Part shown: in pieces, positions 27,043 through 59,752 of the stretch | Layout of the letters: the number at the start of each line of letters is the position of its first letter | Position numbering within the stretch: position 1 is the first letter of the stretch | Position numbers and translations under genes: made by a program | IMG/VR virus record: IMGVR_UViG_3300026549_000034 | Coordinates: 1-64,000 of that record | Length of the DNA stretch: 64,000 nt | Reading direction: 5' to 3' (one strand) | Origin: a virus | Lineage: Duplodnaviria; Caudoviricetes | The notes under the pieces: model-generated | Database searches by the model: none | What the model saw: only the letters and a program-made list of their open reading frames with translations | Told to the model about the DNA's origin: nothing

Positions 27043-27111
27043 AAGTACTTAGCTCAATGTTAGAGCCTTGGATTTTACCAAGAGATTCAGGTTTAATTCC
27101 TGAGGTACTTT
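27043..27111 (+). tRNA. tRNA-like gene with 6 nt anticodon loop (identity undetermined)
   Basis: CTTGG-ATTTTA-CCAAG; paralog at 29898. Confidence 0.6.
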
Positions 27112-27776: not shown

Positions 27777-28805
27777 ATGCAATCTTTAGAAAGTTATATT
27801 GAACGGTTTAAGAATAATTATTACGAGCGTCATTATCAAATAGATTTAAATAATTTAGATTTATTTGATATGTTGATTTTAGATTCATGTATTAATTATT
27901 ATAAAGTAAACTATGATGAACATTATGAATTTGGACAATTATTTGAAAGTCATTCAGTATTTAATAAGTGCAGAGACATAACTAAATTCTTGACATTTGT
28001 GTTAACTAATTTTGATGTAAAGGAATCATCAATACTTTTTATGTGTAATAATATAGAAGAATTAAAAAATGATTACGTTATATCAATTAATATTAATTAT
28101 GAATCAAATATTGAAGATAATGCACAATATGACCAAACAATAGAAAAAAGCATAATAGATAATAAACTTGATTATATTGTTATAAATATTAATACAAACT
28201 TAGATAAAGACGAAATATATGATAAGATTGAACATGAATTAATTCATTCATTTGAAGATTATAATAGAATAATAAATGGAGCAGAATCTTTAAATGATAA
28301 AGCAATACAAGATAAATATTACAAATTATCATTAAGTGAAACCGATTCACAAGAATTACAAGATGTTAAAAATCTACTATACTTATTAGATAAATCTGAA
28401 CAAAATGCGTATATTGCTCAATTTGATGGAATTTTGGGTGATAATAAATATGTAACAATTCAACAAGCATATGAAAAGATATATAATTCCAAATTATATA
28501 AAGACATTAAATCATTTTCATATTTAGTTCTCAATAAAGATAAAGATACACAAGATTTATTATGTAATTTATACAGAAAAATATATGAGACAAATATAAT
28601 AAACAACAAAATTCTTAAAAAGATATATAAAGAATGGAATAGATTTTTTGAACATTTTAGAAGAAATATATATCAATGTATTTGTGACCATATTAAAGAT
28701 AATAGAAATATTTTAGATCGTGGAAGAACAATAAAAGATAATAGCAAATTAAAAGAAAAAATTGAAAACGAATATTTAAATAAATTTATTTTTATTGAAA
28801 AGTAA
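27777..28805 (+). CDS. putative zinc metallopeptidase-like protein (HExxH)
   Basis: HELIH...EQNAY; N-terminus MQSLESYIE. Confidence 0.55.
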   Translation: MQSLESYIERFKNNYYERHYQIDLNNLDLFDMLILDSCINYYKVNYDEHYEFGQLFESHSVFNKCRDITKFLTFVLTNFDVKESSILFMCNNIEELKNDYVISININYESNIEDNAQYDQTIEKSIIDNKLDYIVININTNLDKDEIYDKIEHELIHSFEDYNRIINGAESLNDKAIQDKYYKLSLSETDSQELQDVKNLLYLLDKSEQNAYIAQFDGILGDNKYVTIQQAYEKIYNSKLYKDIKSFSYLVLNKDKDTQDLLCNLYRKIYETNIINNKILKKIYKEWNRFFEHFRRNIYQCICDHIKDNRNILDRGRTIKDNSKLKEKIENEYLNKFIFIEK

Positions 28806-28818
28806 TTTTATGATTTTT

Positions 28819-28904
28819 GGAGAGTAAAGCTAGACAAGGTCAGCGGCTGCCTGCTAAGCAGTTCGTGCGGGTAACTGCATGTGGGGCGGGACCACTGCTC
28901 TCCG
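28819..28904 (+). tRNA. tRNA-Ser(GCT) with atypical T loop
   Basis: Loop CTGCTAA, long variable arm, G73; T loop GGCGGGA. Confidence 0.85.
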
Positions 28905-28905
28905 C

Positions 28906-29094
28906 AGAAACAATGTAGCGCGCATTAACGTACTGTTGATAGCCTTTGATTTTTGCTATCACCGAAACGTACTGATTCGGGAAAGTTTTCTTGGTCTTAT
29001 AATGAAATTGTTGAAAATTTCATATTTTCAATAATGTAATTTTGAAAATTTCATATTTTCAATAATGCAAAAGCTCGTGATGAGAAAAATCAAG
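28906..29094 (+). ncRNA. duplicated structured RNA, copy 1 (with tandem hairpin insert)
   Basis: Homologous to 29968-30090 with compensatory base changes. Confidence 0.7.
29011..29067 (+). repeat. tandem duplication TTGAAAATTTCATATTTTCAATAATG x2
   Basis: Copies at 29011 and 29042, each a hairpin. Confidence 0.85.
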
Positions 29095-29158
29095 TTTTAT
29101 TTTTATTAAAAGATATAAATTATAAATTATAAATCATAAAAACATTAAAGATTATATT

Positions 29159-29404
29159 ATGAAAAATATAAATGAATATCTGGTGAAAGAATCTGCTGAT
29201 GAAGTAGAACTTGTTGTTCTTTCGCCAGAAGAACTTAAAAAGGTTTTAGAATTTATTAAAGGTAATGAGGATAGAGGTATTTGTTTAAGAGATACACGAA
29301 ATACTGATGATGAATGGTATCAAATAGATGCTTGCTATTATGACGATAGAAATGATAAAGGTCCTCGTAATTGGCCTTGGAAAAAAATAGTAAGAAAAAA
29401 CTAA
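29159..29404 (+). CDS. hypothetical protein with capsid-targeting-like N-terminus
   Basis: MKNINEYLVKE. Confidence 0.65.
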   Translation: MKNINEYLVKESADEVELVVLSPEELKKVLEFIKGNEDRGICLRDTRNTDDEWYQIDACYYDDRNDKGPRNWPWKKIVRKN

Positions 29405-29432
29405 AATAAAATATAAAAATATTATATAAATT

Positions 29433-29729
29433 ATGAAACAAATTCAAAATTTTTTATTTGAGGCATCTATAGTTAATCAGGTAGATAATATAATTATTAG
29501 TGGTTGTGGATCAATGCATAATGAAAATGTAATAAATGTTATTAAGTCATTGAAGAATAATTTTAAAAATGCTAATTTATATGTATATGACGGTGATAAA
29601 GATGAAGTTATTCCATTAAAGGATATTAATGATTTTAAAGCCAATGGTCCTCATAATAATAATTTATCTGGTATTGCAAAATTTTACAAAGATCATTTAG
29701 GAGAAATAACAATATTTATACAAAACTAA
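29433..29729 (+). CDS. hypothetical protein with capsid-targeting-like N-terminus
   Basis: MKQIQNFLFEA. Confidence 0.65.
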   Translation: MKQIQNFLFEASIVNQVDNIIISGCGSMHNENVINVIKSLKNNFKNANLYVYDGDKDEVIPLKDINDFKANGPHNNNLSGIAKFYKDHLGEITIFIQN

Positions 29730-29897
29730 TATATCCAAGTAGTCATGAATGCTTGGTGACGTAAAGCCTAAATCCCCGTCATTTAGGGAGAATCGTAAGT
29801 CTCATATCACAAGTACAGGGCCTATGATATCTGTGGTTTAAGAAGGTTTACCTGAGGATAAGAAACCCAAAAACTTCAAAAGAGCCTTGTGTTTTTT

Positions 29898-29966
29898 ACC
29901 TCTTTAGCTCAATGTTAGAGCCTTGGATTTTACCGAGAGATATAGGTTCGATTCCTATGAGAGGTA
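29898..29966 (+). tRNA. tRNA-like gene with 6 nt anticodon loop (identity undetermined)
   Basis: CTTGG-ATTTTA-CCGAG; D arm identical to the 27043 copy. Confidence 0.6.
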
Positions 29967-29967
29967 C

Positions 29968-30090
29968 AGAAACAATGTAGCGCGCATTAACGTACTGTCG
30001 ATAACCTCTATTTTGTTATCGCCGAAACGTACAGATTCGGGAAAGTTTTATTGGTTTTATAATGCAAAAGCTCAAATGAGAAAAACCAAT
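29968..30090 (+). ncRNA. duplicated structured RNA, copy 2
   Basis: Homologous to 28906-29094. Confidence 0.7.
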
Positions 30091-30196
30091 TTTAATAATT
30101 TGGATGCCTGCTGATATTGTAGAACATGTGAAAATTGTGTCTACCTTGTCCACCAGCTCGGTATTAAATAGCAGAATGTGTCCAAATTATTTTAAT

Positions 30197-30283
30197 GCCC
30201 AGGTGTTGGAATGGTAGACATCCCTGCCTTAGAAGCAGGTGCGAAATAATAGTAGCGTGGGAGTTCGAGTCTCCCTCTGGGTA
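30197..30283 (+). tRNA. tRNA-Leu(TAG)
   Basis: Loop CTTAGAA, class II, A73. Confidence 0.92.
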
Positions 30284-30291
30284 CAAAATAT

Positions 30292-30364
30292 TGGGATATG
30301 GTGTAATGGTTGAGCACACAGGTCTCTGAAGCCTTTAGTATCAGTTCGAATCTGGTTATCCCAA
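30292..30364 (+). tRNA. tRNA-Gln(CTG)
   Basis: U1-A72, loop CTCTGAA. Confidence 0.88.
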
Positions 30365-30500
30365 CAAATACTGCCCGTAGTTTTAGATATGAGTTTGACC
30401 CGTATAAGAAACCATATCAAAAACATTTTCAATGACTATAGGAAGAGATTATTGCAGTTGCTCTTCAAAAAACGCACATCCTATATAGAAAATGTAAAAT

Positions 30501-58297: not shown

Positions 58298-59752
58298 ATG
58301 AGTAAACTTAATTCCACACGTAAGTCTTCTACATTGAAGACAAATCAAATAACTGTTGGTGAAATTGCTGGTCAGATAACAGATACTGCAGCAGCTCAGT
58401 CAAATATCGCTCTTCTTCGTAGAGCAGTTCTTGCAAATCTTCTTTGGGAGAATATTGCATACATGGATGGTGAGTCTGTCACAAATGAGATAAAGAGATT
58501 GATTTCTCTTTGTGATCCTCAAGATGTTGCAAATCTAACTATTGAAGCTCGTACTATGCAAAAGCTTCGTCATACTCCTCTTTTCCTTGCAGTAGAAATG
58601 TGTAAGCATGAAGCAACACGTCCTTATGTAAAGGATATACTTCCAAAGATTATCACACGTGCAGATATGCTTACTGACTTCATGGCTCTTTACTGGGCTG
58701 ACGGTAAGTGTCCTATTTGTAATGCAGCAAAGAAGGGTCTTGCTGAAGCATTCCATAACTTCAATGAGTACAAGTTTGCTAAGTATGACCGTAATGCAGA
58801 AATCAAGCTTCGCGACGTAATGTTCATGGTTCGTCCAAAGCCAGAAACTCCTCTTGAGGTTGAACTTTACAAGAAGATTGCTGATCGTACTCTTGAAACT
58901 CCTGAGACATGGGAGGTGCTTCTTTCACTTGCTCACACTAATGAAGAAAAGGCAGCCGTTTGGACAAAGCTTATTACTGAAGGTAAGCTTGGTGGTAAGG
59001 CTATGCTTATGAACATCCGTAATATGCAAAATGCAGGTGTTCCTCGTCCAATCATTGTACAAGGTCTTCAAGAACTTAAGGGAGCTATGCTTCTTCCACT
59101 TGATTTCTTGAAAGCTATGCGTGAAAGTAATGGCTTTGATAGAGAGATTGAAGATGCAATGCTTAAGACATATGAGAATATGCCTAAGCTTCCAGGTAAG
59201 ACTCTATTTATTGTGGATGTATCTGGATCTATGGGATCACTTACAAGCAGTGGTTCAACATTTACTAGACTTGACCAAGCATGTTCGATGGCAATGTTGG
59301 CAGCTAACCAATGTACTGACTTTGAACTTGTATGTACTGCCGGTTCTGATGGAGAGCTTCGTGAAGAGCAAATGAGAATTCTGTATCCTCCTAAGGGATT
59401 TAATCTCTTCAAAGAAATTGAAGCCTCCCGTAAAACTGTAGGAGGTGGTGGTATCTTCACATACCAGTGTCTTGAAAAGCTTCGTAAGGAGCTTGGTGAT
59501 AAGATACATGATTATGACAGAATCATTGTATTCAGTGATTCGCAGGATATAGATGTATCAAGTTGGCGTTCACCTAACCATGATAAGAAGCCACGTCCAT
59601 TTGGTAAGTACAATTATATCTGTGATATATCTGCTCATACTCGTGGTATTGCTTACAATGGTGTTTGGACAGCTGAAATTTCGGGTTGGTCAGAACACTT
59701 CCTTACATATATTGCAGCATATGAAGGAATTGAAAATACATTTGATGAATAA
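58298..59752 (+). CDS. Ro60/TROVE-domain RNA-binding protein (Rsr-like) with vWA domain
   Basis: LR..P, ITRAD, F.EY..AKY, LRDV.F..RPKP, TWE..LS, DVSGSM MIDAS, FSD.Q, SGWSE. Confidence 0.93.
   Translation: MSKLNSTRKSSTLKTNQITVGEIAGQITDTAAAQSNIALLRRAVLANLLWENIAYMDGESVTNEIKRLISLCDPQDVANLTIEARTMQKLRHTPLFLAVEMCKHEATRPYVKDILPKIITRADMLTDFMALYWADGKCPICNAAKKGLAEAFHNFNEYKFAKYDRNAEIKLRDVMFMVRPKPETPLEVELYKKIADRTLETPETWEVLLSLAHTNEEKAAVWTKLITEGKLGGKAMLMNIRNMQNAGVPRPIIVQGLQELKGAMLLPLDFLKAMRESNGFDREIEDAMLKTYENMPKLPGKTLFIVDVSGSMGSLTSSGSTFTRLDQACSMAMLAANQCTDFELVCTAGSDGELREEQMRILYPPKGFNLFKEIEASRKTVGGGGIFTYQCLEKLRKELGDKIHDYDRIIVFSDSQDIDVSSWRSPNHDKKPRPFGKYNYICDISAHTRGIAYNGVWTAEISGWSEHFLTYIAAYEGIENTFDE

Follow-up and report, generated by a model that had tools for sequence, protein, structure and literature searches.

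A previously uncatalogued family of structured RNAs in the tRNA arrays of rumen phages

Two similar stretches of DNA lying among the tRNA genes of a phage record raise the question of what they encode and how they relate to the tRNAs around them. The window, i.e., the whole stretch of DNA that was analysed (64,000 nucleotides), corresponds to positions 1–64,000 of a 193-kb virus record (IMGVR_UViG_3300026549_000034; 27% G+C; about 68% complete), and carries a tRNA array on its + strand at 23.4–31.4 kb. The original prediction, made by reading the sequence, was that of a duplicated, covarying structured RNA fused to tRNA 3' ends, in a position recalling the self-cleaving ribozymes of tRNA trailers in gut phages. 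Comparative analysis established for this element a fold, a family, a strand and an array context.

The two copies indeed lie at 28906–29094 (copy 1) and 29968–30090 (copy 2): a 22-mer taken from their common start occurs twice in the window versus not once in 100 shuffles, and exactly two copies are found in the 193-kb record, by BLAST as well as by covariance model. They are about 88% identical, and their differences preserve the pairing of the stems. Both sets of compensatory differences that had been read from the sequence are real (TGATAGC/GCTATCA versus CGATAAC/GTTATCG, and CTTGGT/ATCAAG versus ATTGGT/ACCAAT), the hairpins CCGAA/TTCGG and CTC/GAG are present in both copies, and the tandem hairpin insert described for copy 1 consists of two exact 26-nt units starting at 29011 and 29042. 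Each of these units has TAATG at its end; the units are absent elsewhere in the 193-kb record, and the insert is missing from the other 12 members of the family. The parts of the two copies, together with the elements directly 5' of them, are the following, each base of the copy 2 pairs having been verified individually:

28820–28905, + strand: degenerate tRNA-Ser(GCU)-like element, directly 5' of copy 1
28906–29094, + strand: copy 1 of the RNA (covariance model R1, 103 bits, E = 2.5e-20)
28907–28911 with 28985–28989, + strand: copy 1, helix P1
28912–28915 with 28923–28926, + strand: copy 1, helix P2
28927–28936, + strand: copy 1, J2/3, AACGTACTGT
28937–28943 with 28955–28961, + strand: copy 1, helix P3
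28962–28966 with 28976–28980, + strand: copy 1, helix P4
28990–28995 with 29089–29094, + strand: copy 1, helix P5
29005–29067, + strand: copy 1, insert inside the P5 internal loop (two exact tandem 26-nt hairpin units)
29074–29076 with 29082–29084, + strand: copy 1, helix P6
29898–29967, + strand: tRNA with a 6-nt anticodon loop (ATTTTA), directly 5' of copy 2 (ARAGORN; Rfam tRNA, 45.9 bits)
29968–30090, + strand: copy 2 of the RNA (covariance model R1, 144.7 bits, E = 1.7e-29)
29969–29973 with 30045–30049, + strand: copy 2, helix P1 (present in the single-sequence fold)
29974–29977 with 29985–29988, + strand: copy 2, helix P2 (RNAalifold)
29989–29998, + strand: copy 2, J2/3
29999–30005 with 30015–30021, + strand: copy 2, helix P3 (RNAalifold)
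30022–30026 with 30036–30040, + strand: copy 2, helix P4, loop ACGTACAGA (RNAalifold)
30041–30044, + strand: copy 2, GAAA
30050–30058 with 30082–30090, + strand: copy 2, helix P5 (RNAalifold)
30058–30070, + strand: copy 2, conserved TATAATGCAAAAG
30071–30073 with 30078–30080, + strand: copy 2, helix P6 (RNAalifold)

Wider homologues exist as well, covariance and pattern searches having yielded a family of 13 members in two groups, i.e., 11 beyond the two copies of the window, on contigs from ruminant gut phages. L004, in a 116-kb record, is the sole relative in IMG/VR (six of seven pattern scans returned it alone and one returned nothing, all remaining matches being due to chance according to nhmmer), while a pattern scan of JGI metagenomes gave five relatives (L121, L127, L128, L132 and L124, with seven further chance matches) and one of genomes gave L133, a short contig that had been placed in a rumen Ruminococcus MAG (with four further chance matches). 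Four more members come from contigs retrieved by means of a neighbouring ORF (L157, L158, L159 and the truncated L162). Sequencing runs containing the stretch derive from gut samples of bovine, goat and sheep. No meaningful match to the motif was obtained by blastn against 50,697 phage records, nor was the motif found by covariance model in 150 bacterial genomes of the family to which the MAG hit belongs, or in relatives carrying the neighbouring 342-aa gene; the motif is therefore phage-borne and sporadic. In related phages the same flanking elements occur without it. A weak candidate (L142:1501-1628, - strand, equivalent to G001:8177-8304; 14.9 bits), located between two tRNAs, has in common with the family only the 5' module, namely the P2 hairpin GAGG[TCGCG]CCTC followed by AACGTAATGT, and its 3' part is unrelated; this RNA may be a modular relative.

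The motif is indeed a structured RNA, about 125 nt long, and the covariation that had been noticed between the two copies is borne out among the 13 members by the hairpins of RNAalifold and by compensatory changes. RNAalifold, applied to a MAFFT alignment made without reference to structure, gave five hairpins: P2 (4–5 bp, its loop of about 7 nt containing GCG), P3 (7–8 bp), P4 (CCGAA/UUCGG, loop ACGUACNGA), P5 (an AU-rich 9-bp helix) and P6 (3 bp, within P5, after the 13-nt one-sided loop UAUAAUGCAAAAG). This is an independent check, since the model-fitted alignment leans towards structure; in that alignment of the 13 members, the paired cells amount to 93.5%, compared with 29–48% after sliding the partners by 1–3 columns, and the covariation score is 0.464 versus 0.183 ± 0.019 for shuffles. 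Changes on both sides of a pair affect 7/7 pairs of P3, 3/4 of P2 and 3/6 of P5, and also occur in P6, while P4 is invariant, so that covariation neither supports nor contradicts it. The many G-U pairs identify the strand of the RNA as that of the tRNAs. The thermodynamic z-score of copy 2 is unremarkable (-0.2), and the case for the fold thus rests on the comparative evidence.

P1 (GAAAC/GUUUU) is the weakest helix. When copy 2 is folded by itself, P1 closes the structure, and a single pair of it covaries (G-U is replaced by U-A in L004 and L127). We regard it as tentative, since it is missing from the RNAalifold prediction and group 2 has another P1 or none. The helices that are supported are all nested, without any pseudoknot among them, and the 5' and 3' ends of the motif are unpaired with one another. 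The pseudoknot GCATTA/TAATGC that had been thought possible gives way to a local, covarying hairpin, AATG[7 nt]CATT: its pair AATG/CATT becomes AAAG/CTTT, GTAG/CTAC or GTGG/CCAC in relatives, while TAATGC stays constant, so the 5' strand varies with AATG and not with TAATGC. A further candidate, the pairing of J2/3 with the P4 loop (GUAC with GUAC), involves two near-invariant strands and so is beyond the reach of covariation; one member has AACCUACUGU with the loop unchanged, which speaks mildly against it. A coding reading was also discarded, given that loop-length differences are not multiples of three and that the changes are compensatory.

About 45 unpaired or loop nucleotides are nearly invariant across lineages whose stems have fully diverged. 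The near-invariant unpaired segments are AAC[G/C]UACUGU, the P4 loop ACGUACNGA, GAAAG and UAUAAUGCAA; AACGUAC occurs twice per motif, at the P2–P3 junction and in the P4 loop. The hexamer TATAAT shows no change in the 12 members that extend this far, and conservation goes well past it (TATAATGCAA). The phage genome has no excess of sequences complementary to the invariant segments (GTACGTT is present four times on the + strand versus about 7.8 expected).

None of this corresponds to a catalogued RNA. Over the window, Rfam 15 at gathering thresholds returned tRNAs alone, and a cmscan of 28700–30250 with E up to 10 gave no ribozyme, Y RNA, riboswitch or other family, which agrees with the earlier impression, gained by eye, that the fold matches neither HDV nor hammerhead. 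The HDV, hammerhead, twister, twister-sister, hatchet, pistol and hairpin ribozyme models are all without a match in that interval at the same threshold, and the P4 loop differs from a hammerhead core in that its CUGA-like segment is variable (CAGA, CUGA, CCGA). Neither ARAGORN nor the Rfam tRNA model RF00005 calls a tRNA at the motif, whose P4 loop ACGUACNGA is not a T loop. Promoter and terminator patterns are likewise absent from the motif, and no terminator-like site was seen in 28600–30400. The motif accordingly represents an RNA family not catalogued before, belonging to the tRNA arrays of large, AT-rich rumen phages.

All 13 members lie inside tRNA arrays and on the same strand as the tRNAs. 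On the upstream side, a tRNA or tRNA-like element abuts 6 of the 13, with P1 starting exactly 2 nt past the discriminator; three of these follow a tRNA with a 6-nt anticodon loop (copy 2, L128 and L133), two follow a tRNA-His with an encoded G-1, and copy 1 follows the tRNA-Ser(GCU)-like element. In L121 a 20-nt spacer separates the upstream tRNA from the motif, and the five group-2 members start at, or a few nt from, the stop codon of an ORF. The L127 member sits between two tRNA-His genes. A start directly after a tRNA discriminator, as originally described, is therefore not a general property of the family, and even in the window it needs qualifying: copy 2 begins 2 nt past the discriminator, and copy 1 behind a degenerate element that escapes tRNA calling. 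This element has the acceptor GGAGAG/CTCTCC, the anticodon-arm loop CTGCTAA and a non-canonical T loop, and gave no ARAGORN call at any threshold and no Rfam tRNA match. Its homologue in L151 (about 2274–2361) is recognised as tRNA-Ser(gct) when the ARAGORN threshold is relaxed, and not otherwise, and no motif follows it. In both phages (window and L151), the degenerate element follows the 342-aa gene.

The downstream tRNA is the more constant neighbour. Of the 12 members whose 3' end is complete, 10 have a tRNA or tRNA-Ser-like sequence beginning 3–13 nt past P5, and what lies between P5 and the next tRNA is only a variable U-rich tail of 3–13 nt, P5 being followed by 4–6 U in most members. 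In the window, copy 1 has an ORF downstream and copy 2 is 106 nt from its tRNA. The roughly 100 nt that separate copy 2 from tRNA-Leu(UAG) (30094–30196) are missing in L128 and L133, where the motif and the tRNA are 6–9 nt apart. The identities of the flanking tRNAs vary between members.

Part of this close packing is a general feature of the arrays. Gaps of 4–10 nt between tRNAs are common in them, so that tight abutment is the local norm. In the window and in L004, L121, L124, L127, L128, L132 and L133, the sequence N73-C-(A/T) stands behind most tRNA genes, which suggests a common rule of tRNA 3'-end maturation in these phages; the "CA" linker, which follows most of their tRNA genes, is thus not part of the motif. 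Few tRNA genes of these contigs encode a full CCA.

Several other observations concern the arrays themselves. The tRNAs with a 6-nt anticodon loop (AUUUUA), to which ARAGORN assigns no anticodon, are found at 27043–27111 and 29898–29967 of the window, at L128:1987-2056 (- strand) and at L133:230-299 (- strand), and their anticodon stem stays paired across the three contigs (CTTGG/CCGAG, CTTGG/CTGAG, CCTGG/CTGGG). The roughly 160 nt 5' of the odd tRNA in the window (29730–29890) are 87% identical to L133, with differences clustering in apparent hairpin loops (e.g., CATATCA...TGATATC) and without any Rfam match, and may be another structured RNA. Spacers between tRNAs are often 100–400 nt long in the arrays of the window and L127, which leaves space for more small RNA genes. 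A TnpB/Cas12f-like (OrfB_IS605) gene lies within the tRNA array of a group-2 phage contig (L157:1601-2770), and a 473-kb relative (L146) encodes homologues of Tpt1/KptA (PTS_2-RNA) and Thg1 (tRNA-His guanylyltransferase) at 1087–2745, about 10 kb upstream of an array of 21 tRNAs.

The explanation that we favour, although tentatively and at somewhat less than an even chance, is that of a small RNA gene within the tRNA array whose product is released by the ordinary tRNA-processing nucleases. The motif would be transcribed, in the orientation of the tRNAs, within the array precursor. RNase Z-type 3' processing of the abutting tRNA, where there is one, would cut upstream of it, and RNase P would cut downstream, where the next tRNA begins, usually 3–13 nt further on. 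The freed RNA would be a string of hairpins, consisting of P2, P3, P4, a long P5 whose large internal loop lies on one side, and a small P6, which P1 might close into a four-way junction, and its near-invariant unpaired segments would offer a working surface for some protein or RNA partner. Excision by tRNA nucleases and action in trans are inferred. In two samples, RNA-library contigs extend over the stretch; being broken at a 32-nt repeat (a joint that "goes back 1062"), they carry no information on RNA ends. Against this explanation, the near-invariant junction nucleotides would suit a catalytic or ligand-binding core equally well.

A catalytic core is what the main rival proposes, namely a new class of self-cleaving ribozyme that cuts at the 5' border of the motif, ahead of the first P1 base, and thereby trims the trailer of the upstream tRNA or parts an upstream mRNA from the tRNA array, as the HDV-like theta ribozymes do in gut phages. 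The exact distance of 2 nt between discriminator and P1, kept in 6/13 members and in three unrelated contexts (odd tRNA, tRNA-His and tRNA-Ser-like element), would fit such a cut, as would the G-U first pair of P1 in five members, which resembles the HDV cleavage site; the almost invariant junction and loop nucleotides between varying stems look like a ribozyme core, and tRNA-adjacent ribozymes have a precedent (PMC10879173). However, no Rfam ribozyme model matches with E up to 10, the fold has neither HDV nor theta topology, and there is no 3' strand for an HDV P2 pseudoknot because the U-rich tail and the next tRNA directly follow P5. The helix next to the supposed cut is moreover the weakest one; one member has its 20-nt spacer, and the five members behind an ORF have a different P1 or none. 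Close spacing and "CA" being general features of the arrays, and only 6/13 members abutting an upstream tRNA or tRNA-like element, the positional argument for a tRNA-trailer ribozyme is weak, and we regard a self-cleaving ribozyme as unlikely. Its specific form as an unpseudoknotted multi-hairpin ribozyme of about 125 nt, with the two AACGUAC segments and the UAUAAUGCAA loop as active core, appears rather improbable. Were the motif catalytic, it would represent a new ribozyme class linked to tRNA maturation.

Quite improbable, too, is a cis-acting structured spacer that is degraded after excision and that insulates the folding of pre-tRNAs or sets the cuts of RNase P and RNase Z. The motif always lies between array units, mostly with a tRNA 3–13 nt downstream, and its upstream partners are often odd (the tRNA with a 6-nt anticodon loop, the degenerate tRNA-Ser-like element, tRNA-His with G-1), as a spacer of this kind might lead one to expect; but a spacer would not need some 45 near-invariant unpaired or loop bases across diverged lineages, the flanking tRNAs differ in identity between members, and related phages have the same flanks without the motif. 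A riboswitch-like element or attenuator, whose junction would bind a metabolite or factor while P5 and the U-rich tail control read-through into the tRNA, could draw on the conserved junction between variable stems and on the 4–6 U behind P5 in most members. It is nevertheless very improbable, as there is no terminator-like site, P5 is AU-rich and broken by a 13-nt loop, alternative pairing is not evident, and the arrangement in the window, with copy 1 ahead of an ORF and copy 2 at 106 nt from its tRNA, does not suit it; we know of no riboswitch within a tRNA array. Least credible of all is an element acting as DNA, i.e., a promoter by virtue of TATAAT or a site of recombination or homing. TATAAT is invariant in 12/12 members that reach it, and the motif occurs sporadically and at varied array positions, but neither copy has a -35 partner or any sigma-70-like match on the + strand, conservation extends well beyond TATAAT (TATAATGCAA), and compensatory changes in four helices together with G-U pairs on a single strand favour RNA.

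If the motif is indeed a small RNA gene, the long spacers in the tRNA arrays of large rumen phages can contain RNA genes. Targeted assays are feasible, since natural variation defines both the fold and the invariant, presumably functional, nucleotides.

Several known systems invite comparison. GOLLD, ROOL and the Drum motif are orphan structured RNAs often located near tRNA genes in phages and in rumen or gut metagenomes; the first two are several times larger than the motif, and none of the three Rfam families matches the motif region. Y RNAs, known from bacteria and phages as partners of Ro60, are small, structured and often close to tRNA-like modules. The setting recalls that of YrlA-type Y RNAs in that the phage record of the motif itself encodes TROVE/Ro60, a 491-aa ORF at 58298–59752 of the window matching Pfam TROVE (Ro60) above the cut-off. 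In contrast to Y RNAs, however, the motif has no 5'–3' terminal stem with a bulged Ro-binding helix, no tRNA-like domain and no Rfam Y RNA match, and in the G001 fragment (only 44% complete) the motif is present while a TROVE match is absent.

Theta ribozymes, which are minimal HDV-like ribozymes, adjoin tRNAs of gut phages (PMC10879173). Like them, the motif is a structured element found directly 3' of gut-phage tRNA genes that lack an encoded CCA, and some members share a G-U first pair of P1. Unlike theta and HDV ribozymes, it has no nested double pseudoknot, no identifiable J4/2 catalytic C and no Rfam HDV match, and many of its members are not fused to a tRNA.

The closest parallel is offered by phage T4, whose RNAC and RNAD, the species 1 and 2 RNAs of the tRNA region, are stable RNAs of unknown role (PMC3014915, PMC9697503). 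In T4, rnaD starts 1 nt past tRNA-Arg and rnaC 6 nt past rnaD, and the rumen motif resembles these RNAs in its size class of about 120–140 nt, its location inside a phage tRNA cluster, its orientation on the tRNA strand and its abutment to tRNA genes. The parallel is one of position only, because covariance model R1, run with filters off over the T4 tRNA region, gave no match at the rnaC/rnaD coordinates, and because the T4 RNAs have tRNA-like ends (the ...CACCA 3' end of rnaD and the T-arm-like GGTTCGAATCC of rnaC), both of which the rumen motif lacks. The motif may thus be viewed as a positional analogue of T4 RNAC and RNAD, and would then represent, after these, a second and unrelated case of a small RNA residing in phage tRNA clusters.
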